A stretch of 39,177 nucleotides of DNA, taken from a virus. Taxonomy: Duplodnaviria; Caudoviricetes. The notes under the pieces were generated by a model. It made no database searches and was not told the origin of the DNA. It was given only the letters and a program-made list of their open reading frames with translations. The position numbers and the translations under genes are program-made. The stretch spans positions 1 to 39,177 of the IMG/VR virus record IMGVR_UViG_3300033155_001846, one strand, 5' to 3'. The stretch's first letter is position 1; each line of letters starts with the position of its first letter. This document shows, piece by piece, positions 7,127 to 39,073 of this stretch.

Positions 7127-9490
7127 CTATAACTTAATGGGTTGAAAAAGGTAACCACGATCTTCATCTCTTTTTAATCTTGATTCGCGTTTATGTAATT
7201 TACCTATGTAATCAGGATCAGCAATCTGGCTGATTGTTTGATAAACATAACGATCAAAAACTAATTTTGTATACCAAAGCTGCGACGGCATATTTTTTCT
7301 AACCTCATCTGTAAGCGTCGAACCAAAGCTTTGTAATATTTTCTCGAAGGCTTTTTCATCCTGGTTGATTGCGGCTACAAACGCTTGCTGTGTATGCGCT
7401 AATAGCAACCGACCTAAAAGTGTTTCCATTGCTGCTGCTGATGGCCCAGCTAATGTAGCTACCATTGATCCACCAAAACGACTCTGATCCTTAAATATAA
7501 AGTCTGCAAAAATGCCAAGCCCACCTCCCTGCGCCGCTGCTCTCAACCATGCTGCACCTGTAGTCATATCCATTGTTTCTTTACCGGCCACAAGTTCTTT
7601 TATTTGCGCGGCCATCATACCCATCGTAGTTAAAGTAACAAAAGTTGAAGCTAGATATGCAGCGCCGCCTGCCTTACCGAATTGCTTTGCAAACTCAATC
7701 TGATACAACAGAATTGAAATACCGAACGATTTAAACTGCCCCCCTGACCTCATTCCCTCACCGTAAATTGTTCCTGATTCTGATCCCTGTCTCATTATGG
7801 CCCTTACTTCTACGTCCGGCGCTGGGATTGCACGATTGGCTAACACATCCATCATGTTCCCAACCTTCATTTGTAGCTCCATTGGAAGTTCGCGCAGATC
7901 AATATATTTAGCACCGTTAACAACTTGTTTCTTTGATTTTGCTAAAGACTTCCAGTCCGCTTCATTAATGCCGGACTCCTTCAGCATTCTTAAATTACTA
8001 GCTGATAGATCCTTCCATGCTAAACCCTCGACGTTTGCCAAATGACCTAATGCTGATAACTGAATTGAAGATCGGCCCACTTCAGTCATCTTGTTTAAAC
8101 CAGATAGACGAATAAACCGATCAGGTACAGCGGCAAATTTACCCCATACGGTATTTGCATCCACCTCACCGTAACGCGCTAACCCACTGGCAATATCAAT
8201 TACATAATCCGCGTTAACCATGCTCTGTAACAAGAACTGCTTTTCAGCCTTGCCACCGCCAGCCATATGCTTTAAAAATATCATGGTGGTCTTAAATATA
8301 GGTAATCCATTAATAGCGGATGTTATTACTAGCGTACCCTGATCACCAATGGCTGAAATAGCTGCGCCACCTAATTTAGAAACATTAATCGCACGTAACG
8401 TTTCAAAACCTTGTTGAATTTTATTATTAGTACCAGATAGCTCGCCGGTTAATTCCTTCATTGTATTATCGGCACGACCAATCAAGCGTTGATTCTTATG
8501 GCCTGCTTTTTCTGACGCTTTCGAGCGAACGTAATTATATCCGGCCCCTGGATTCGGGCCGAACTGTCGCATCAAAGCGGTCTCTTGTGCGATCCCCATA
8601 ACATGCGTAATCATGGATGAATAAATATTGTCCTCACCAAATTGTTTTTGATAATTCAAATAACTTTCACCTGTCTTAAAACGAAGAAAACGCGTTCTAT
8701 TCTGTACGCCTCTGGCCACACGAATGTCCTTATAGCCAGCCGCTTCCCAATCCATTTTAGATGCACCATTCGTTACAATGGCGTCATACATTGACTCAAG
8801 CGCTCCGCGCAATCGCGGGTCACCTGACGTAAATGATTCACCAGTTTCGCGGTTAATCATATTATCAACGTCCAATACGCCCTCTTCCATTAAGCCATCA
8901 ACCCATGATGACTTATCGACTCGACGAATTTTTAAAGCATTATGGTTTTGAGGCAAATTCCAGTGATCATTTTTTCTAATAGTGCCGCCCATTTTTGTGT
9001 GCAGCGCTACCAGTTTGTCGTTAGCTTTGATGAATGACTGTGCGAACGCTTTTGCTTCTGCATCACCAGTTGATTCACTGAATATTTCTTTAACAATATT
9101 CAGTCTCATGGTGTTATCAACCTGCCATGCATTTGATGTTCTAGGCATGAGACTTTCCATCATGTCTGACATTTCAGAAAACGCAAAACGAGAATATTGA
9201 TTTGCCATTGTTTCGACTGACTTAATGCCTGACGTACCCGTTTTATCGAATGCGAGCAAAGACATTAATCCATTTTGAGGGCCACTAGGATGTGTGTTAA
9301 TCGCCTTCATTGCGCTATCAATTGCAAGTAACTGAATCTTGGCCTGCTTTACTTTGAAGTTACCTTCATCAATTGCAAGTTTCATCTGTTCTTGGAACTG
9401 TATTTCACTCAGGTTATCCTGCCCTTTTAGCATCAGAGTTAGTTCATCTTCAGTGAACCCGTTTTTAATTAGGCAATCTCTTGTACTCAT
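7127..9490 (-). CDS. Internal virion (DNA ejection) protein
   Basis: 787 aa, helical, with hydrophobic Gly/Ala-rich C-terminal segments (GE.MR..GQFKSF, AAAQGGGLGIFADF); located between the ejection genes and tail fibres. Confidence 0.75.
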   Translation of the reverse strand: MSTRDCLIKNGFTEDELTLMLKGQDNLSEIQFQEQMKLAIDEGNFKVKQAKIQLLAIDSAMKAINTHPSGPQNGLMSLLAFDKTGTSGIKSVETMANQYSRFAFSEMSDMMESLMPRTSNAWQVDNTMRLNIVKEIFSESTGDAEAKAFAQSFIKANDKLVALHTKMGGTIRKNDHWNLPQNHNALKIRRVDKSSWVDGLMEEGVLDVDNMINRETGESFTSGDPRLRGALESMYDAIVTNGASKMDWEAAGYKDIRVARGVQNRTRFLRFKTGESYLNYQKQFGEDNIYSSMITHVMGIAQETALMRQFGPNPGAGYNYVRSKASEKAGHKNQRLIGRADNTMKELTGELSGTNNKIQQGFETLRAINVSKLGGAAISAIGDQGTLVITSAINGLPIFKTTMIFLKHMAGGGKAEKQFLLQSMVNADYVIDIASGLARYGEVDANTVWGKFAAVPDRFIRLSGLNKMTEVGRSSIQLSALGHLANVEGLAWKDLSASNLRMLKESGINEADWKSLAKSKKQVVNGAKYIDLRELPMELQMKVGNMMDVLANRAIPAPDVEVRAIMRQGSESGTIYGEGMRSGGQFKSFGISILLYQIEFAKQFGKAGGAAYLASTFVTLTTMGMMAAQIKELVAGKETMDMTTGAAWLRAAAQGGGLGIFADFIFKDQSRFGGSMVATLAGPSAAAMETLLGRLLLAHTQQAFVAAINQDEKAFEKILQSFGSTLTDEVRKNMPSQLWYTKLVFDRYVYQTISQIADPDYIGKLHKRESRLKRDEDRGYLFQPIKL

Positions 9491-22271: not shown

Positions 22272-23777
22272 CTAATGACATTGACGTTTTACTTTTGGTT
22301 TAAAATGTCGCCTATCCGGTCTCTCTGCATGACGAACACTCATCACGGCATAGCGAGTCGCCGCCATAATGTCGTCATCTTTATCGACGATCTTGTGATC
22401 CTTATGGTGGTAATTCCTGAACTCCTGAAACCACTCAGCTAGATGATCGAAAACTTTTAATCGCCCTTCCTTCATTCGTGTACTCATCTCTACCAAACCA
22501 GGCATAACCTGAATCCCGCCCATACCTTCTTCTTGCCCCTCCTTTGGTGGGTTGGTAAATTTATCTTTAAGCAGGTTGACTCCGTACATTCGGTATTGCC
22601 CCTGAATAGAATCCCCCATACCAAATTGTTTGTTTCCGTCGTGAGGCCATGCGATAGGGATTCGACCTCCGTCACGTTGATTAATGTAAGGAGCGATTTC
22701 GACAATCTCTCTTTTTTCGACACAAAGAACATCGTAAATATAAATAGTGGTTGTCTCTGGATCGACAGCAATCCAAACGACAGCGGTGGGATGGGTGTAG
22801 CCGAAATCTATGCCGGCAATTCGTGGCCAGTGGTCTTGTATCGGAAAAGCGGGAATTGAAATATCTTCTTGAGCATAAGGAAAAACCAGACCCGAACCCA
22901 AAACAGGTTCACCTTCTGACCGCATCTTTATTTCGTGCGGCATCATGGCTGTCATAGCGGCGGTAATTTTTTCTTCAGTTAAGTGACCTTCTGCGCCACT
23001 ACGTCTGAATTGTTTCTCAAATTGAACGGAGTATTTTCCTAAATCTAAAAAAAAGGTAGTGCCGGCGACATCTTTCCATCCGGCTTTATGCAATGACCAC
23101 GCAGAATCTTCTGCGTCCATTAATTTGACGACACCTGTCGTTCCGTTCTCAGGAGTAAAGGTCATGAGAATAACCCCACCTGTATCAACAACAGACCGAA
23201 TGGCTTGCGACATTATCTGCTCTGGTGGCTCTTCATCTAACCAGTTAATATCTGCCTTATGCCCCATCCATGTTTCTTTAGGCATGTCGTAAGCTAAAAG
23301 CGTTACTTTTGACCAGCCGCCTGAGACATGCTTAACCCAAACGTGATACTTGGCTTCGGGGACACCAGGTTTTCGCATGGCGTCACCGATCAAGTGTTTC
23401 GGTATCCAGCCTGTCCCCCATGATGCGTGAAAAGTGGGATCGCCAAATAAGGCGTTCTGAATAAGGTCACGGGTTTTTTCATTATTCTTACCAGCGGCCA
23501 CTACCTTCACCGGACTGGTGTAACGTCTGCCTTCCCACCAATCAGGGTAGAGACCTGTTGCGTGGTAAGCGACTTCCGCTCCACCACAATGAGTTTTACC
23601 GATACGATTCCCCGCTCTAAGGCAGCGGAACTTTCCTAAGTCATTATGAAATGAAATTTGGTATTGATACGGATCATAATGATCTATAGCGTTCGTTGAT
23701 TCGTGCTTTTCTAATTCCAGATACAGCTCATCTAAGTCAGATAACAAGCCTGAAATATCTGGAGCCGAGTTAGACAT
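22272..23777 (-). CDS. terL: Terminase large subunit (P22-like)
   Basis: Walker A AGNRIGKT, GLYPDWWEG, Walker B WLDEEPP, MTFTPENG; nuclease GIDFGYTHP, WPHDG, DDDIMAATRYA. Confidence 0.95.
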   Translation of the reverse strand: MSNSAPDISGLLSDLDELYLELEKHESTNAIDHYDPYQYQISFHNDLGKFRCLRAGNRIGKTHCGGAEVAYHATGLYPDWWEGRRYTSPVKVVAAGKNNEKTRDLIQNALFGDPTFHASWGTGWIPKHLIGDAMRKPGVPEAKYHVWVKHVSGGWSKVTLLAYDMPKETWMGHKADINWLDEEPPEQIMSQAIRSVVDTGGVILMTFTPENGTTGVVKLMDAEDSAWSLHKAGWKDVAGTTFFLDLGKYSVQFEKQFRRSGAEGHLTEEKITAAMTAMMPHEIKMRSEGEPVLGSGLVFPYAQEDISIPAFPIQDHWPRIAGIDFGYTHPTAVVWIAVDPETTTIYIYDVLCVEKREIVEIAPYINQRDGGRIPIAWPHDGNKQFGMGDSIQGQYRMYGVNLLKDKFTNPPKEGQEEGMGGIQVMPGLVEMSTRMKEGRLKVFDHLAEWFQEFRNYHHKDHKIVDKDDDIMAATRYAVMSVRHAERPDRRHFKPKVKRQCH

Positions 23778-25166: not shown

Positions 25167-25676
25167 TCATATATTTTCTCCAGTTAGTTGGGATATTCTT
25201 AATTGTGTTCGTTTAATCTCTGCCCTTATGTCTATCCGGTTTCTGTCTGTTTGTTTGTTCGTGTCAGGTTTATTCTTTCCGGCATATTCTATTAATAAAC
25301 TCGCGCATTTAGCTCTTATGGCTGGAGCCGTATCTTCGTCTGCCGTTATTTGATATAAGACACTGTACCCCAGTGTAGCGCCATCCATTATTCGCTGATT
25401 CAATCGCGCTTCTATTTTATGCTGGAGCCTTCTATGTATCTCACCGGCTCGCTGTCTGGAAGTATCGCAGTCAACTCCTGCGGCTTTCGCGGCTTTCTCT
25501 AACGCCTTTGTTTTATTGCTGGGGTTATCTAAATAAATACTTATGTAGTGTTCGTCTAAACTCCCCGCGCTGATTCTTTTTTGTTTTTCTGCGGGGATCA
25601 ATTCACCAGTTATCACGTCATCGTCTGTAGTGTTCATAATGTTTTTTTTCGTCACAAAATAAGCGCAATTAATCAC
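25167..25676 (-). CDS. Putative terminase small subunit
   Basis: HTH-like N-terminal half (YLDNPSNKTKALEKA..AG), PAIRAKCASLLIEYAG helical motif; upstream of terL on the same strand; start uncertain. Confidence 0.5.
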   Translation of the reverse strand: MINCAYFVTKKNIMNTTDDDVITGELIPAEKQKRISAGSLDEHYISIYLDNPSNKTKALEKAAKAAGVDCDTSRQRAGEIHRRLQHKIEARLNQRIMDGATLGYSVLYQITADEDTAPAIRAKCASLLIEYAGKNKPDTNKQTDRNRIDIRAEIKRTQLRISQLTGENI

Positions 25677-25684
25677 ATATTGTG

Positions 25685-25713
25685 TTGTGTTACATGTACA
25701 CTTTTGTTATAAT
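25685..25713 (+). promoter_or_regulatory. Strong sigma70 promoter of the ardA operon with a spacer palindrome
   Basis: TTGTGT-17-TATAAT with extended TGn; near-palindrome GTGTTACATGTACAC at 25687-25701. Confidence 0.75.
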
Positions 25714-25742
25714 AAATTATGTTAAACAAAGAGGCTAAAAAC

Positions 25743-25946
25743 ATGAAATCAATACTTCCAATAGTTACTTTTCCGCAAGGTTACGAGACAGAATGCGAAG
25801 GCATTCTTCTATTCATTGACGCCAATCACTATGCACATATTTTGCACCTAGACGACATGACGATTTATGTCGGTGGTGAATGGCAAGTAAAAGAAACAAA
25901 TGATAGCTGCCCTGTCGAATACATCGACATAAAGGCCGCCGCTTAA
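25743..25946 (+). CDS. Small acidic hypothetical protein
   Basis: Start revised to ATG 25743 after the AAGAGG RBS. Confidence 0.7.
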   Translation: MKSILPIVTFPQGYETECEGILLFIDANHYAHILHLDDMTIYVGGEWQVKETNDSCPVEYIDIKAAA

Positions 25947-25995
25947 CGAGTATTTTTATTTTTTATTAACCGAGTTAAATCAAGAGGCTATTCTT

Positions 25996-26619
25996 ATGGA
26001 CACTCAAATATATATTGCAGATCTTGCCGCATATAACGCCGGTCGTCTTCGTGGACGCTGGATAGATGCAAACCAGACACCAGACGAATTAAGCGGCGCA
26101 GTTAAAAGTATGCTGCTTGAATCACCTGAGTCAAATATCCCCTGCACAGTCTGCAATGACTGCGGACACATTGAACATTACGCGACACTCCCACACAAAA
26201 AAGGTCTTTCATTAGCTCTCGTTAATGGCTGGGCTGATCACGACGCGAACACTTGCGACTATTGCGGCTCTTCAGATCTTCGTCAGACTGTAACGGCTGA
26301 AGAATTTGCTATTCATGACACTGATGGAATAGACGTGGAAGAATACACCAGTCTTGAGACAGTATCAGAACTTGCAGAACAGTTAGCCAACAATGGCGAC
26401 GCTTATCAAGCGTATATAGAACTGGTTGGTTCTGAATATGCAACCGCTGAAGGTTTCGAGAATCAATATATGGGTGAAGCCGACTCAGAAGAAAGTTTTG
26501 CTTATCAATACGCGGATGATTGCGGAATGGAAACAAGCAATTATTTCAACTGGGATCAATTCACCTATGAATTGTTCATGGATTATTCTTTCATCAACGG
26601 CCATGTTTTTTGTAGTTGA
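25996..26619 (+). CDS. ardA: Antirestriction protein ArdA with Cys-rich insertion
   Basis: IYIADLAAYNAGRLRGRWID, AEEFAIHD, YMGEADSEESFA, YFNWDQF..ELF; very acidic. Confidence 0.9.
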   Translation: MDTQIYIADLAAYNAGRLRGRWIDANQTPDELSGAVKSMLLESPESNIPCTVCNDCGHIEHYATLPHKKGLSLALVNGWADHDANTCDYCGSSDLRQTVTAEEFAIHDTDGIDVEEYTSLETVSELAEQLANNGDAYQAYIELVGSEYATAEGFENQYMGEADSEESFAYQYADDCGMETSNYFNWDQFTYELFMDYSFINGHVFCS

Positions 26620-26665
26620 TCAATTTAAGCCGGTTATTTTTTAGCCGGTTTATGTGGATCAACTA
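26613..26665 (+). other. Long intergenic hairpin
   Basis: TAGTTGATC/GATCAACTA outer stem plus TAAGCCGGTTA/TAGCCGGTTTA inner stem. Confidence 0.75.
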
Positions 26666-26681
26666 GAAAGAGGCTATTCCA

Positions 26682-26996
26682 ATGAGTTATAAAACCGAGT
26701 TCCCCGATTTTGATTATATTCCCTTGCTGGCGTTTCATGAAGGCTGGTATGACACCAGCTGGCACAATGACACCTGCCCTTCATTTGAGCGGTTAACATT
26801 AGATCAATTCACAATAAAAGTGTTTTTTGACTACAAAAATATAAAAAAAAGAGAAGTAGACAGTGGTGAAAAGTTCTACGTTGCTCTTTATGACAAAGAC
26901 AATGATTTTATAAAAGATCTTTTATTAACAGATTATGAAAATGAACTTCGTCTATTTTTAATTTCGATTGAATACACACGGAGCGCAGACTTATGA
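26682..26996 (+). CDS. Acidic hypothetical phage protein
   Basis: WYDTSWHNDTCPSF motif; AAGAGG RBS. Confidence 0.75.
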   Translation: MSYKTEFPDFDYIPLLAFHEGWYDTSWHNDTCPSFERLTLDQFTIKVFFDYKNIKKREVDSGEKFYVALYDKDNDFIKDLLLTDYENELRLFLISIEYTRSADL

Positions 26997-27220
26997 ATAT
27001 TTACGATCTTATTTATAACAGCTACGAGATAAATACCAAAGACTGCGATGAGGACGCAACCAATTACGCCAGAGGCACAGTGTTTAGTGAATATTCACTA
27101 AATAACGAAACAATCGGAATCTACAGACACGTCGATTCTGTTAATGGTGTTGATATCTATTACGACATCGCAGCTGATTACTATTTTTTCTCACCGACTG
27201 AAGAGGCTATTCAATCATGA
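26993..27220 (+). CDS. Very acidic, Tyr-rich hypothetical protein
   Basis: Translationally coupled at both ends (ATGA). Confidence 0.7.
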   Translation: MNIYDLIYNSYEINTKDCDEDATNYARGTVFSEYSLNNETIGIYRHVDSVNGVDIYYDIAADYYFFSPTEEAIQS

Positions 27221-27537
27221 AAATGAAACCATTAAAAAAATCCCAGCGTAAACTATGGACACCTGAAAACAATAGAGAGCTAGTTGACCTTTATAATAAA
27301 ATGTTAGCTCTTCAGCTGTCCGACACTAAATACTCAAAAGCGCCCCTTGTCCGTGCATTAGCCACGACTCAAGGTAGATCAAAAGGCTCTATTGAGTGCA
27401 AGCTAATGAATGTGTCAGCTATCCGTCAAAATCTGTTACAACTTCCGATAGTAAAAGGCTATAAGGCCTTAGATAATTACAATCATGACTTAGCTGAAAT
27501 GATATGCAATGATAACAATGTAGAATACGAACGTTAA
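27217..27537 (+). CDS. Stand-alone domain resembling the N-terminus of HNH/DUF3883-type restriction nucleases
   Basis: WT.E..ELV..Y..ML...YSKA...RSKGSIECKLMNVSAI...P.VKGYK...NY. Confidence 0.6.
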   Translation: MKMKPLKKSQRKLWTPENNRELVDLYNKMLALQLSDTKYSKAPLVRALATTQGRSKGSIECKLMNVSAIRQNLLQLPIVKGYKALDNYNHDLAEMICNDNNVEYER

Positions 27538-27542
27538 ACAAT

Positions 27543-27582
27543 AGCCGAAACGCCGTCATACGGTGCTTTCGGCTTTTTTTTT
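27543..27582 (+). terminator. Intrinsic terminator of the ardA operon
   Basis: AGCCGAAA-CGCCGT-CAT-ACGGTG-C-TTTCGGCT followed by a T-run. Confidence 0.85.
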
Positions 27583-27711
27583 GATCTTTTTTGTGTTTTT
27601 TTTGAAAGAAATAGAAAATTGCGAAGCTGGTGACACCTAAAAAGCATTAACCAGACTAGGCAAAATTGAATATAATAAAAACCAGGTTATCTGTCATTTA
27701 ATGTCAGGCAT

Positions 27712-27736
27712 AAAAAAAGGCTGGTTTCCCAGCCTT
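27712..27736 (-). terminator. Intrinsic terminator
   Basis: GGCTGG-GAAA-CCAGCC followed by T7 on the minus strand. Confidence 0.85.
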
Positions 27737-27779
27737 GATCCCCCAAGACAAAGAGGCTATTCCTTGAAACATTGGGGGT
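27712..27779 (-). ncRNA. Candidate multi-target antisense small RNA
   Basis: Own promoter and terminator; hairpin CCCCCAA/UUGGGGG plus CAAGGA/UCUUUG with loop AUAGCC; complementary to six RBS regions. Confidence 0.65.
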
Positions 27780-27783
27780 GATG

Positions 27784-27812
27784 ATTCTAACAAAGAGGCT
27801 GCGGTGAAACAA
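27784..27812 (-). promoter_or_regulatory. Putative promoter of the small RNA
   Basis: TTGTTT-17-TAGAAT with extended TGn. Confidence 0.6.
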
Positions 27813-28022
27813 ACTAATAAAACAAATATTGAGTTGCTTGAGATCAAGGAAGACAATGAATTGACTCAAGCGGATATTGCAGACATGTTGAGCATCTCAG
27901 TAAATACGGTAAAGAGTTATCTGTGTAACCCAGAATCAAGCAGGTATAGGGATTTTCCCCAGTCAAACCTGAAGCATTTAAAAATGGTAGTACAGTATGA
28001 ATTGTGGCAAAAAGACAACTAG
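27804..28022 (+). CDS. XRE-type HTH regulator
   Basis: LTQADIADMLSISVNTVKSY; GTG start after AAGAGG. Confidence 0.8.
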   Translation: MKQTNKTNIELLEIKEDNELTQADIADMLSISVNTVKSYLCNPESSRYRDFPQSNLKHLKMVVQYELWQKDN

Positions 28023-28031
28023 CTTACAGAT

Positions 28032-28040
28032 ATCATAACA
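28032..28040 (-). promoter_or_regulatory. Possible late (pR'-like) extended -10 promoter
   Basis: TGTTATGAT just downstream of the Q-like gene; weak -35. Confidence 0.4.
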
Positions 28041-28049
28041 AATAAATTG

Positions 28050-28078
28050 CATAAAGCGACAACTATTGTCGTTTTATG
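28050..28078. terminator. Hairpin between convergent genes
   Basis: CATAAAGCGACAA-CTA-TTGTCGTTTTATG. Confidence 0.55.
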
Positions 28079-28090
28079 TCGTATTACTTT

Positions 28091-28555
28091 TTAGCTCAAT
28101 TTATTCTTAATTGAGTGCAGCGCGCTCTCTTCGTATGCATTCATAATCTCAAACAGTCTTTTGTATTTATCCTTCCAGATCCTTGACCAGACTGATGGGT
28201 GAACACCAATAGCTTTAGCCCTACTCCTGTCATTAAATATTCTTGTTCCAGTATATTCACTGATGGAAAGATGAACCAGACAAGGTAATCTACGCCTTTT
28301 CCATTTTCCTTTCTGCGCCTCTTCTTTAATTCTATCAATCAATAAATCTCTTAGCTTTTCATAACCAGACTGGTCATCAGAGTATTTAATCAATACTAGG
28401 TGATAACCAATTCCATTAATGGATGCACAAGCATGAGAAAGGTCGGCTGCATTTACACCAGGTATTCCGCTCAACCTCATTGGCTGGCAAGATTGAGGGC
28501 TTAGTTTTGAGATTAACTCAGTCACCAGAATACTCCAAGAAGTGAGTGACATCAT
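28091..28555 (-). CDS. Putative antiterminator Q-like protein
   Basis: FNDRSRAKAIGVHPSVWSRIWKDKY C-terminal HTH; at the end of the nin-like region. Confidence 0.6.
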   Translation of the reverse strand: MMSLTSWSILVTELISKLSPQSCQPMRLSGIPGVNAADLSHACASINGIGYHLVLIKYSDDQSGYEKLRDLLIDRIKEEAQKGKWKRRRLPCLVHLSISEYTGTRIFNDRSRAKAIGVHPSVWSRIWKDKYKRLFEIMNAYEESALHSIKNKLS

Positions 28556-29363: not shown

Positions 29364-29720
29364 TCATATAATCATTCCTGTTTTTCGAGCCGACAATTCA
29401 GTTCGATATAATTCAATAACTAATGCAGATGTAATTCTTTTGTTTCTTACAAGCTCATAATCGTAAACAGCAGCGACGTATTTCTCTCGCCAGTGACAGT
29501 AGTCAGGGCTGGTTCGAGCTTCTGCATCTCTCAGCCCCAACGTATTACGAACTGATTTTAAAAGGTTCAATGACAATATTGTCTTCTCTTGCTTGTCTAA
29601 ACCGTTCATATAGGCTTTAGCCCTAGCAAACTGCTCATCAGTCCCAGCAAGATACTCTGTACACTGATCAACTTCTTCTGTTGATATCATTTTGGCGACG
29701 CCTTTTTTCCGCTGCTGCAT
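29364..29720 (-). CDS. Conserved-type helical phage protein
   Basis: DAEARTSPDY...IELYRTELS coiled-coil pattern; true start possibly MISTEE. Confidence 0.6.
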   Translation of the reverse strand: MQQRKKGVAKMISTEEVDQCTEYLAGTDEQFARAKAYMNGLDKQEKTILSLNLLKSVRNTLGLRDAEARTSPDYCHWREKYVAAVYDYELVRNKRITSALVIELYRTELSARKTGMII

Positions 29721-29889
29721 TTATCCCTAGAAAAGTATCAAGATGGCTGCGGGCTATATTTCGCTGCCCCTCAGTTAACGTGCCTGCATATTCCCTCATC
29801 TTTTTTTTATCTTTTTGATACAACTGAACTATTTTTCCGTTAATAACACCTTGATTATTTTTAAACTGTGGATCGTTATCTTGCGGCAA
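29668..29889 (-). CDS. Hypothetical protein
   Basis: 73-aa ORF overlapping its neighbours in the operon. Confidence 0.45.
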   Translation of the reverse strand: MPQDNDPQFKNNQGVINGKIVQLYQKDKKKMREYAGTLTEGQRNIARSHLDTFLGINAAAEKRRRQNDINRRS

Positions 29890-30616
29890 TGAGAATAGCC
29901 CTCCCTATTATTTCTGGAATATGAGGTACTACTGCATTCCCTAACGCCTTTAATTTAGCCACGTTTTTGGGTACCCCATCAGTTCTGTGACGAACAGCTG
30001 GTTCAGTCGGTGGTTTGATGGGTCTGAATGCTGGTGGATAACTGCGTCCGGTAGGTTGTTTGTTAGTGGGTTTCTTTTTGACGCCTTCATTGCTTCTGGT
30101 GAGCGAGTGCCTTTGTAGTCTCTTGTTGTTGGCGTAGGCAATAACCCAGACCCGCTCCCTTCTGTGTATACCTCCGACACTGCAAGCTGGAATAATAAAC
30201 GTTTGGCAGGCGAAGCCTTCACTCTCCAGATCATGTAGCATATCGTCGAGTGCCAAGGTGATGAAACCAATAACGTTCTCACCAATGACGATAATGGGTT
30301 TGATTTCTTTAATAAGGCGAAACATTTCTGGCCAGAGATTTCGATCATCTTCTTGCCCTCGTCTGTTTCCGGCGATGGAATATGGCTGGCAGGGGAACCC
30401 TCCGCAAATAATGTCAATTGCTCTAATTCCATCGTCATGTAATTTTTTTACCGTTAACTCTTTAATGTCCGTGTATACAGGAACACTTGGCCAGTGTTTT
30501 CTTAAAATAGATTGAGGGAACTCTTCTTTTTCACAAAAAGCGACAGTATTGTGACCTGCTCGTTCTAACCCCAAACTGAAACCACCAATCCCAGAGAACA
30601 AATCCAATACTTTCAT
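29876..30616 (-). CDS. C5 cytosine DNA methyltransferase (alpha-type chain)
   Basis: Motif I DLFSGIGG, IV GGFPCQ, VI ENV, VIII HRRERV, X KALGNAVVP; no motif IX in this frame. Confidence 0.92.
   Translation of the reverse strand: MKVLDLFSGIGGFSLGLERAGHNTVAFCEKEEFPQSILRKHWPSVPVYTDIKELTVKKLHDDGIRAIDIICGGFPCQPYSIAGNRRGQEDDRNLWPEMFRLIKEIKPIIVIGENVIGFITLALDDMLHDLESEGFACQTFIIPACSVGGIHRRERVWVIAYANNKRLQRHSLTRSNEGVKKKPTNKQPTGRSYPPAFRPIKPPTEPAVRHRTDGVPKNVAKLKALGNAVVPHIPEIIGRAILIAAR
29950..30438 (-). CDS. Overprinted methyltransferase beta-type chain
   Basis: Nested alternative frame with LPTPTTRDYKG and motif IX-like RLNQLFVTELMGYPKTW. Confidence 0.7.
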   Translation of the reverse strand: MTMELEQLTLFAEGSPASHIPSPETDEGKKMIEISGQKCFALLKKSNPLSSLVRTLLVSSPWHSTICYMIWRVKASPAKRLLFQLAVSEVYTEGSGSGLLPTPTTRDYKGTRSPEAMKASKRNPLTNNLPDAVIHQHSDPSNHRLNQLFVTELMGYPKTWLN

Positions 30617-35403: not shown

Positions 35404-35709
35404 ATGTTACTTACCATAAAAGACGTCGCTAAAGAGCTTCAATGCAACTACCAGACAGTTAGAAGAATGGTAGCCAGTGGCAAGATCGAAGCTATCCGCG
35501 TTAATGCACGTTGCATCAGGATTCACCCCGACAGTTTAGATAGATACATCAACACTAAACTCAAAGAGGCTAAATCATGCGAGCAACAAAAAGCAAAACA
35601 ACTGGAAGATTCCAGTTCAGGTTCTACGACTCAGCAGGAGACCAGCAGTTCTTCTCGTCAAGAAAGGATTTCCCGAAGGGTATTAATCAAAGGCAGGCGG
35701 ACGAAATAG
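35404..35709 (+). CDS. xis: Excisionase (HTH_17-like)
   Basis: MLLTIKDVAKELQCNYQTVRRMVASGKIEAIRV..IRI..DSLDRYI; overlaps int. Confidence 0.8.
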   Translation: MLLTIKDVAKELQCNYQTVRRMVASGKIEAIRVNARCIRIHPDSLDRYINTKLKEAKSCEQQKAKQLEDSSSGSTTQQETSSSSRQERISRRVLIKGRRTK

Positions 35710-36587
35710 CGACGAGTATTCATGAAATTCATGAAGCAGTATTGACTAAAACGAGCCGCCCTCTTCTATCAGATTGCGTAAACAGAATGATCGAACACCT
35801 AGCAAACACAGGTGTAAAAAACATAGACAACTATCAAAACCATGCAAACGCTGCACTAAAACACAATAGAGAAGGCAACACTATTGATGACGTAGTGAGA
35901 GTGTGCATAGAGATGAGAGACAGTATGTTAAAAGCCAAAAAAGATAACGGCTCTCCTAAATACAGTGGCAACACCATCGGTAAACGAATGTACATATATA
36001 AAAGAACGGCCAACTTGGCTTTTCAGGAATGGGACATTATCGACCAGCCTCTATCGCAAAAAATGAAAAAACCAAAAATACCAAAAGCAAGAACTCGCTT
36101 TTTGACACCTGAGGATTGTGGGCGATTAATAGATCAATGTGAAGACGACCAAACCAGATATGTTCTCGCTTTGTACGCATTGACTGGCATTCGCCATGCC
36201 GAATTAAAAAGAATGGGCAGCACAGACATATTAAAAAATCGCATTATCATTGACGGAAAAAATGGATCAACCCGATCATTTGCTATATCAAAAGAAGCCT
36301 TGGATATCGCAAGCAAGATAGATTTTCCTGTAACCAGAACATATGATCAGATGTATAAGTTCTTTTGCGATGCAAAGGACTTGGCTGGAGTTGAGGATTT
36401 TGGGATGCACGACCTTCGTCACACATTTGCTTCATGGCTGGCACAGTCAGGAGATGTATCGCTTCATCATCTACAGCAAGTTATGGGGCATTCGCAAATG
36501 AATCAGACATTAAAATACGCCCACTTGATGCCGGAGGATCTTGATGGCGTAGCAGTGAATTTATCAATAAAAGACCAAAAAAACTGA
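35577..36587 (+). CDS. int: Tyrosine integrase
   Basis: TGIRHAE (R), GKNG (K), HDLRHTFAS (HxxR), MGH, LKYAH (Y). Confidence 0.95.
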   Translation: MRATKSKTTGRFQFRFYDSAGDQQFFSSRKDFPKGINQRQADEIATSIHEIHEAVLTKTSRPLLSDCVNRMIEHLANTGVKNIDNYQNHANAALKHNREGNTIDDVVRVCIEMRDSMLKAKKDNGSPKYSGNTIGKRMYIYKRTANLAFQEWDIIDQPLSQKMKKPKIPKARTRFLTPEDCGRLIDQCEDDQTRYVLALYALTGIRHAELKRMGSTDILKNRIIIDGKNGSTRSFAISKEALDIASKIDFPVTRTYDQMYKFFCDAKDLAGVEDFGMHDLRHTFASWLAQSGDVSLHHLQQVMGHSQMNQTLKYAHLMPEDLDGVAVNLSIKDQKN

Positions 36588-38365: not shown

Positions 38366-38650
38366 TTACGTTAGAGCGGTAATCTTGTAGTCTCTATCCC
38401 AATCAATTCTGGCCATGAAATAGCCCTCAGAGGTATTAGGGTGAAAGCCATTAACGAGAGCGAGCTTTCCGTTGTACCTAACTAATGACCAGATTCTGTG
38501 GTTCTTATAGGGGTCATGCTTTCCATCATCCAGCTGATTAATAAATACAGAATCAAACATACAACATCTGAAGCCATAAGCCGAGTCGGATTGGGGTCGT
38601 TCGGGGTTTCTAATGGGTTGAAAATAGCTAATCCATTCTGTCATTGTCAT
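38366..38650 (-). CDS. Hypothetical protein, tandem paralog copy B
   Basis: Highly similar to 38789-39073 (FQPIRNPERPQSD, IWSL, LVNGFHPN). Confidence 0.8.
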   Translation of the reverse strand: MTMTEWISYFQPIRNPERPQSDSAYGFRCCMFDSVFINQLDDGKHDPYKNHRIWSLVRYNGKLALVNGFHPNTSEGYFMARIDWDRDYKITALT

Positions 38651-38723
38651 TTTATTATCTCCAATATTCTGTCAGGGGGGGGAAATGATGGAGTTATATA
38701 TAAATGATAATGAGAAAAAAACG
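38641..38723. repeat. 83-bp exact copy of the upstream regulatory region of the paralog pair
   Basis: Identical to 1-83 and 39064-39146. Confidence 0.95.
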
Positions 38724-38788
38724 TAGAGCAAGCAGCCCGCATTGCAGACAGTAGTGAGGTAGCTATGGAAAAAAACCTATGGAAAAAA

Positions 38789-39073
38789 CTACAGCAGGGA
38801 CGTAATTCTGTACTCTCTGTTCCAATCAATTCTGGCCATAAAAAAGCCTTCGGCATTGTTGGGGTGAAACCCATTAACTAGAACGAGCTTTCCGTCATAC
38901 TTAATTAGTGACCATATTTTATGATTTTCGTAAGGGTCACGATCTTCAGCAGCAGACTGATCAAGACAGACAGTATCAAACATGAAGCGTCTAAAACCAT
39001 AGGCCGTATCGGATTGAGGGCGTTCGGGGTTTCTAATGGGCTGAAAATCATCTAACCATTCGTTCATTGTCAT
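38789..39073 (-). CDS. Hypothetical protein, tandem paralog copy A
   Basis: GGAG RBS; paralog of 38366-38650. Confidence 0.8.
   Translation of the reverse strand: MTMNEWLDDFQPIRNPERPQSDTAYGFRRFMFDTVCLDQSAAEDRDPYENHKIWSLIKYDGKLVLVNGFHPNNAEGFFMARIDWNREYRITSLL

Follow-up and report, generated by a model that had tools for sequence, protein, structure and literature searches.

A likely gene for a small antisense RNA in a temperate phage, with a loop matching the ribosome binding sites of an accessory cassette and of the integrase

Gene content and the accessory cassette

The window, by which we mean the whole stretch of DNA that was analysed, is an entire virus record of 39,177 bases. Its genes are those of a temperate phage with a short tail and lambda-like early control. 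The minus strand encodes terminase, portal, capsid and tail proteins from position 23777 downward, and a repressor-like gene, an exonuclease, xis and the integrase gene (35577-36587, PF00589) are found from 32307 on the plus strand. The small terminase candidate (25167-25637) was named by position and conservation. A candidate for a Q-like antiterminator (28091..28555, minus strand) has weak PHROG hits (E 0.003 and 0.0095), and homologues of this gene are present in every relative covering its region. Annotated phages gave a single 42-nt chance match to the cassette region described below, and their best terminase identity was 44%; there is therefore no cultured close relative. The nearest terminase in a named record (81%) lies on a 4.3-kb contig of a Thiohalomonadales MAG (L055), which is possibly misbinned.

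Five genes on the plus strand, opposite to the late genes, form an accessory cassette (25743..27537) that encodes ArdA (25996-26619, Pfam PF07275, E 5e-28) and four unknowns. Its position is defined by the order small terminase, cassette, HTH gene, Q-like gene. The cassettes of the relatives, which lie at the same place, vary in content and include ArdA, ArdC and RadC besides unknowns. At the cassette end, the sequence contains a terminator-like hairpin with a U run (27543..27580, plus strand), identical in 33 of 38 positions in the related phage G004. A candidate cassette promoter with an extended -10 element was located by sequence at 25685..25713 (plus strand); its spacer contains an inverted repeat that is imperfect in the window, and a clear spacer palindrome is seen in six of the 11 cassette promoter regions examined.

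The HTH gene (27804..28022, plus strand) encodes a 72-aa protein (Pfam HTH_24, PHROG 7950), a candidate Aca-like repressor of the cassette, and is found at the same place in nine phages. According to PMC13551039, the promoter of an anti-defence operon is the usual place for an Aca-type repressor to act. Since the spacer palindrome lies at this place, the HTH protein probably provides a first, transcriptional layer of control. Sequence searches against Pfam, PHROGs, NCBIfam and PDB returned no acr gene and no Aca label.

Several further features of the region deserve mention. Long imperfect stems of ~25 bp, alike in their pattern of bulges, occupy gaps between cassette genes shortly before the ribosome binding site (RBS); one is located in the window at 26613-26665 (plus strand), and others in the cassettes of L011, L045, L052, L053, L032, L050, L051 and L008. 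They look like RNase III processing sites, such as those before the T7 early genes, or like protein-bound RNA motifs, and they may function as modules for gene exchange. The 106-aa cassette protein encoded at 27217-27537 (plus strand) has look-alikes by predicted structure (TM about 0.8) in domains found in predicted restriction endonucleases and HNH nucleases. A domain of this kind standing alone in an anti-restriction cassette, if the structural prediction holds, would be a lead for a new anti-defence protein. Elsewhere in the window (38366-39073, minus strand), two similar 94-aa ORFs with identical 25-nt leaders represent an apparent tandem duplication.

The predicted small RNA and its matches in the window

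Upstream of the HTH gene, the minus strand carries a predicted small RNA of about 68 nt (27711..27778), whose 5' end was placed from the -10 element. Its 5' hairpin (27740..27778) contains the anti-RBS sequence and exposes an unpaired loop of 6 nt (27755-27760) on a 6-bp inner helix; an intrinsic terminator (27710..27736) with an 8-bp stem (27717-27736) and a U run follows. This fold, described in an earlier note made from the letters of the window, was recovered by our calculations for the minus strand (z = -3.40, 0 of 200 shuffles). The promoter proposed in the same note (27784..27812, minus strand) stood in part: an extended -10 element (27784-27792) and a -35 element (27807-27812, inside the HTH start) are present in the sequence, but the latter is weak, with a fit of 3/6, and a consensus scan did not list the promoter. 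In comparison with G004, the locus appears as an island of conservation, with 21/23 identical positions in the core and 26/28 in the terminator versus 13/30 and 26/60 in the flanking spacers. The letters of the outer stem are identical in 5 of 11 and 8 of 13 positions (13/24 in total) with the pairing kept, and one terminator pair is changed on both sides. The segment 27784-27800 is identical in 16 of 17 positions, a value to which the overlapping HTH RBS contributes. Rfam covariance models gave no match at gathering score in the window. A small protein encoded by the hairpin strand was considered and rejected: although the frame is open in the window and in G004, the two do not share their start codon, nor is the internal ATG conserved.

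The RNA gene would be crossed by other transcripts as well. A candidate HTH promoter lies at 27647..27676 (plus strand; 10/12 consensus, 34/38 identical in G004), and the leader transcript starting there would traverse the whole RNA gene and represent a fully antisense partner. In G001, it is the cassette operon that contains the hairpin. In L011, L012, L038 and L053, all type-2 phages (see below), a divergent HTH promoter apparently overlaps the RNA promoter between the hairpin and the HTH start. On the late strand, a conserved non-coding block 3' of the Q-like gene (28023..28065, minus strand; 37/43 identical in G004) is a candidate late, pR'-like promoter; an extended -10 element is visible in the window and in G004, with a spacing that is not canonical. 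In neither of these two phages did we find a terminator other than that of the hairpin between the Q-like gene and the small terminase. The block could possibly give rise to a 315-nt RNA with the same 3' end, and the terminator may also end transcripts of the late operon.

Six sites complementary to the hairpin were confirmed on the plus strand, 1-5 nt before start codons and with the coordinates and lengths listed before. Four are RBSs of cassette genes, namely of the first gene (25743-25946; site 25726..25737, 12-nt match, net binding energy -5.6 kcal/mol), of ardA (25982..25993, 12 nt, -8.3 kcal/mol), of the gene at 26682-26996 (26667..26680, 14 nt, -9.6 kcal/mol) and of that at 27217-27537 (27201..27212, 12 nt, -10.7 kcal/mol). 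The fifth is the RBS of the HTH gene (27790..27800, 11 nt, -7.5 kcal/mol), which overlaps the RNA's own promoter, and the sixth that of the integrase gene, located inside the xis reading frame (35562..35572, 11 nt, -4.7 kcal/mol). The only one of the five cassette genes lacking a site starts at 26993 and overlaps the stop of the preceding gene. The starts of structural genes are devoid of the motif, as had been noted, and the motif differs among relatives; on these grounds we reject a generic host RBS. A possible weak seventh site (29893..29900, minus strand; 8-nt match, net -4.0 kcal/mol) precedes an ORF with a TTG start (29668-29889) and ranks 4 of 54 by duplex energy, with a match of only 6 nt in G004. 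The start of the early-operon gene leading to the Q-like gene carries a partial motif at this position as well as at L033:17679 (+) and L045:2410 (+), and this gene is possibly an additional target.

The genome is AT-rich, and the raw count of six distant 11-nt matches is not rare in it, being reached or exceeded by 50 of 1,304 segments of 60 nt. Rarity lies in the placement before starts: all six matches of at least 11 nt to the hairpin precede ORF starts, against a background of 0.12. Among 7,824 segments of 60 nt on both strands, a single one matches six of the 54 starts, and only six, positioned over the hairpin, match four or more. The motif 10-mer, allowing up to one mismatch, occurs nine times versus 2.54 ± 1.45 expected, a number reached in none of 100 shuffles. 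The expectation that a genome-wide scan would place the six RBSs on top was borne out by duplex energy insofar as they are among the top seven of the 54 starts, but the weak 29668-29889 start takes rank 4. The mean duplex energy of the best six is -22.0 versus -15.7 ± 1.3 (0 of 200 shuffles). After subtraction of the unfolding cost, net binding ranges from -4.7 to -10.7 kcal/mol at the six sites, compared with +0.5 to -2.5 kcal/mol at seven control starts. Some sites of the relatives show poor net binding (ardA of G005, -1.4; the fifth gene of G004, -0.5), and one control, xis of G001 (net -5.5), scores like the targets.

Matching of loop and sites across related phages

Relatives were found by scans with the HTH, terminase, Q-like and small-terminase proteins. 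A hairpin at the corresponding position, in the interval from the Q-like gene to the small terminase, is present in seven more phages: G004 (L002), G001, G002 (L011), G003 (L012), G005 (L038), G006 (L045) and L053. Six loci near-identical to the window (L001, L004, L005, L023, L042 and L043) were left out as non-independent, and L003, an unrelated virus that matches by chance within a coding region, was dropped. The variability of a broad HTH alignment precluded its use for scanning; searches with the HTH protein gave 5 and 31 proteins, without gene context, and a genome scan with the small terminase gave no matches. In a blind scan of 192 loci (2.37 Mb), from which 21 duplicate loci had been removed, the design was found in this clade only and five of the eight known cases were recovered; the loci are limited stretches, so absence elsewhere is not implied. 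Nine of 61 ArdC loci have an extra copy of the motif in some hairpin, and loop and U run are convincing in two clade members only.

Among the eight hairpin phages, the RBS motif occurs in three sequence types. Type 1 is present in the window and G004, type 2 (an A-rich spacer and a core longer by one G) in G002, G003, G005, G006 and L053, and type 3 (an extra G and a U-rich spacer) in G001. Each of the phages has one extra copy of the motif in the intergenic hairpin, and this copy is always of its own type. Hairpin and terminator are distinct elements in type 1, with the anti-RBS hairpin coming first, whereas in types 2 and 3 the anti-RBS forms the loop region of the terminator-like stem. A 6-nt loop on a short inner helix is exposed in types 1 and 2 alike. 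Altogether, 30 of the 47 matches of at least 10 nt precede starts, and the 5' palindrome of the RNA itself accounts for five of the 17 misses. This 10-bp palindrome is invariant at the 5' end of all five type-2 RNAs (L011:4851-4862, L012:2498-2509, L038:6826-6837, L045:5389-5400 and L053:169-180) and represents a DNA operator at the start of transcription or else a small hairpin.

Three contigs with repeated RBS motifs (L008, L051 and L052) end before the position of the hairpin. L050, of the same family and on the type-1 side, has no hairpin before the HTH gene and a match of 4 nt at int. It contains only a 7-8 nt copy of the cassette RBS, in an unpaired stretch beside another terminator, which we regard as ambiguous and have not counted in favour of the proposal. 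The element in question (L050:8557-8658, plus strand) consists of a hairpin, the unpaired anti-RBS-like stretch and a strong terminator directly 3' of the Q-like gene, with 7-8 nt matches to two cassette starts; possibly the late promoter drives a version of the RNA here. A gene on the other strand of this contig (L050:4873) has a type-1 RBS. Outside the clade, L224, an unrelated large virus record, has several RBS-like unit repeats in non-coding DNA near ardC (7670-8000), and in L156, a distant terminase relative, the minus strand upstream of terminase has at least five small genes, one of them ArdC-like, with a common long leader and RBS; no antisense hairpin was seen within the stretch of L156 examined.

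Covariation of the loop with the RBS motif in relatives had been set beforehand as a test, and the outcome was positive: each type is matched by its own loop, including at the distant integrase site. We fixed the starts by homology rather than by motif and compared orthologues of int (6), ardA (5) and ardC (4). With the own RNA, these starts have matches of 9-14 nt, which are longer than those with the best RNA of another type in 13 of 15 cases, with two ties (int of G001 and G002), whereas eight control starts match over 4-6 nt only. By duplex energy, the own RNA wins in only 10 of the 15; RNAs of other types score better at int of the window, G004 and G001, at ardA of the window and at ardC of G001. 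The integrase site, which lies inside the xis frame and 6-8 kb from the hairpin in the linear cases, matches in all six hairpin phages that have int in the DNA examined (G006 and L053 do not cover it). In G003, one loop base is changed and the int site has the partner change, giving 13 nt with its own RNA and 8-9 nt with those of its sisters. For the base before the core, a synonymous swap of an Arg codon in xis follows the flank of the RNA in G002, G003 and G005. The motif types follow the small-terminase tree with two changes, the minimum, so only about four independent coordinated changes are represented, not eight. The stem stays paired in 50 of 50 cells, and in two pairs both partners have changed; taken alone, this result is weak (33 of 500 shuffles reach it). 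The HTH gene as a target is a mixed case: its start has the 11-nt match in the window, but matches of at least 9 nt are found in only three of nine phages.

In summary of these comparisons, complementarity extends over the Shine-Dalgarno core and the spacer, the fold is predicted, and loop and sites match across lineages. An accessible seed, the hallmark used here for a trans-acting base-pairing sRNA, is predicted, conserved and covaries with several targets.

Proposed mechanism, alternatives and relation to known systems

In our view, the hairpin at 27711-27778 likely encodes a small antisense RNA whose loop would pair with the shared RBS of the cassette and integrase genes and block their translation as a set. 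Support for a single trans-acting sRNA over cassette and integrase, as suggested before, comes from sequence comparison. A sigma70 extended -10 promoter would produce an RNA of 55-70 nt ending at the intrinsic terminator. Its loop would first contact the spacer bases between Shine-Dalgarno core and start codon; the short inner helix would then open to yield 11-14 bp over the core, and loading of the 30S subunit would be prevented. On entry into a new cell the RNA would be absent, and the strong cassette promoter could give a burst of ArdA/ArdC-type proteins. With accumulation, the RNA would silence remaining or leaky messages according to a threshold logic. A cassette-sense transcript across the RNA gene (the HTH leader in the window, the operon in G001) could soak up the RNA as long as transcription is strong. 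Silencing is most plausible in the lysogen, because ArdA would disarm host restriction and Int would destabilise the prophage; this timing is the least supported step. There, host restriction would remain active and Int scarce owing to the RNA, which could also target superinfecting phages of the same type. The palindrome in the cassette promoter would be the separate site of action of the HTH protein. As for the idea of an RNA counterpart to Aca repression, sequence comparison speaks for the RNA layer, but the cassette is probably controlled by a protein repressor too; the RNA would thus be a second layer and not a replacement for Aca-type control.

Other explanations have to be weighed. The RNA could be real with the integrase as its sole selected target, as a substitute for lambda-type retroregulation (int versus xis), the cassette matches being copied intergenic stem-plus-RBS modules. 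That the int site tracks the loop more closely than the others do, down to single bases, that xis is never matched, that G003 retains its 13-nt int match despite a reduced cassette, and that similar long stems often precede cassette genes would fit such a scenario; yet the longest matches (12-14 nt) are cassette sites in the window, G002, G006 and L053, and cassette sites change type together with the loop and also precede genes without a stem module. We regard it as very unlikely. Slightly more doubtful is the assumption that the hairpin is only a late-strand transcription terminator (tR'-like, downstream of the Q-like gene), with the loop as a leftover RBS copy devoid of regulatory pairing. 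A promoter resembling lambda pR' is located where the Q-like gene ends in five relatives, and in three of them (G001, G002 and G006) a U-tailed terminator is visible before the HTH gene; the hairpin in these three is accordingly a second unit, with its own -10 element. The loop is moreover better conserved than the stem (21/23 versus 13/24) and tracks a site 6-8 kb away. The position of the hairpin in the late strand, after the Q-like gene and before the small terminase, an interval in which the window and G004 offer no other terminator, nevertheless agrees with a terminator function, as does the position of the motif in the terminator loop itself in type 2 and G001, and StxS is an example of such a transcript (PMC7547250).

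Equally improbable, in our estimate, is a motif that serves as a protein site, be it an asymmetric, stoperator-like DNA operator or an RNA element that the HTH protein recognises; the hairpin copy would then be a further site or a decoy. The HTH gene is adjacent in nine of nine phages and its sequence differs between motif types; there are also precedents in Aca1 and Aca2, which bind RNA motifs at anti-defence genes (PMC13551039, main text), and in the asymmetric one-orientation repressor sites of mycobacteriophages (PMC9283540). The strand argues otherwise. In nine of nine candidates the strand antisense to the sites folds better, with more G-U pairs (partly an effect of composition). This strand also carries the U run in seven of the eight hairpin phages (the U tail of G001 is broken), and an extended -10 element precedes the fold by about 7 nt in all five type-2 RNAs, a -10 element being present in G001. 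Fold, U run and promoter hence place the RNA antisense to the sites, and a same-sense protein decoy is unlikely. In addition, the side to which a match extends varies from site to site, which pairing would permit, the spacer palindrome of the cassette promoter (6/11) is a more usual HTH site, and the HTH protein consists of a single domain of 66-72 aa. The last alternative accepts the pairing and differs from our preferred explanation only in timing and outcome: action mainly late in the lytic cycle, or against superinfecting relatives, or through mRNA cleavage rather than occlusion. Late antiterminated transcripts would carry the hairpin, and the long stems between cassette genes presumably resemble RNase III substrates. 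Motif types differ between lineages as do the c4 specificities between P1 and P7 (PMC12197685, main text). With pairing over the Shine-Dalgarno core and spacer at every site, however, occlusion is the default, and 11-14 bp are short for RNase III, so that we judge this the least probable of the alternatives.

Returning to a small antisense RNA acting on cassette and integrase, we compared it with known systems. In the literature covered, which consisted mostly of open-access main texts, we found no phage RNA that targets a shared RBS of anti-defence genes and int. The closest likeness is to the c4 RNA of P1/P7, as described in the main text of PMC12197685: a phage-encoded structured RNA with a loop complementary to sequences near an RBS (here predicted) and with phage-specific pairing. 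However, c4 controls one operon (the ant antirepressor), whereas here one loop matches 3-6 starts including int at 6-8 kb distance. For the c4 family, there was no Rfam match, nor any c4 match at E up to 1 in L025-L028, and no antirepressor family was matched among the targets (ArdA/ArdC/RadC cassette genes, HTH, integrase). The RNA would thus work like c4 without being a member of that family, a variant of phage antisense control for which the comparison of related sequences gives good support. P22 sar, lambda OOP and aQ are likewise short phage RNAs with their own promoter that repress a lifecycle gene (PMC12197685, main text), and the likeness partly extends to cis, as the RNA of the window also overlaps a sense leader. 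According to the same text, these RNAs are cis-encoded, single-target and fully complementary, in contrast to the mostly trans targets with 11-14 bp found here.

A second group of relevant elements are the SAS repeats of Cluster K, which the main texts of PMC3203893 and PMC11373665 describe as asymmetric, RBS-overlapping and located in one orientation a few nt before the starts of non-structural genes. Their role is given there as unknown, with an RNA or protein partner left open, and four Cluster K genomes have one SAS copy in opposite orientation. Conservation beyond what anti-Shine-Dalgarno pairing demands, a point made in the earlier note, is seen in our motif as in SAS. The phages are unrelated and the sequence is another one (the 13-bp SAS consensus does not fit here), with 11-19 copies versus 3-6 here; no partner RNA is shown in these main texts, whereas a covarying partner is found here. 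With Aca operons (PMC13551039, main text), our locus shares an anti-defence cassette with a strong promoter, a spacer palindrome, an adjacent small HTH gene, multi-operon control and the need to shut off expression after entry. Control there is exerted by a protein on DNA or on same-sense RNA stems, and the word antisense is absent from that main text; here, an antisense RNA is predicted. StxS, finally, is a small RNA from the interval after Q that ends at a late-strand intrinsic terminator and acts on phage messages in the lysogen (PMC7547250). It differs in being processed from the pR' transcript and in having host targets, as opposed to the own predicted promoter and the phage RBS targets described here, and most relatives here have a separate pR'-like unit.

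Anti-defence genes have to be expressed immediately on entry and shut off thereafter, for which protein repressors (Aca) are the known solution. If our proposal is true, the phages would have found an RNA solution that works through gene-independent address tags and couples anti-defence to the integrase, and newly acquired cassette genes would fall under control by gaining a short RBS. The tag on genes of unknown function would be a simple flag for candidate anti-defence genes, and the three natural RNA-RBS pairs would allow their orthogonality to be tested in laboratory E. coli. The covarying hairpin would also offer a concrete candidate for the kind of partner that the RBS-overlapping repeats of unknown role in Cluster K may have (main texts of PMC3203893 and PMC11373665). 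More tentatively, and with somewhat less than even confidence, we envisage an RNA-addressed regulon in which any recruited gene would receive the standard RBS and a single sRNA would silence an exchangeable anti-defence cassette together with the integrase. Drift of loop and address would then create a lineage-specific RNA immunity that disarms superinfecting kin, and the same principle might explain start-associated repeats in other phages, such as the SAS of Cluster K.
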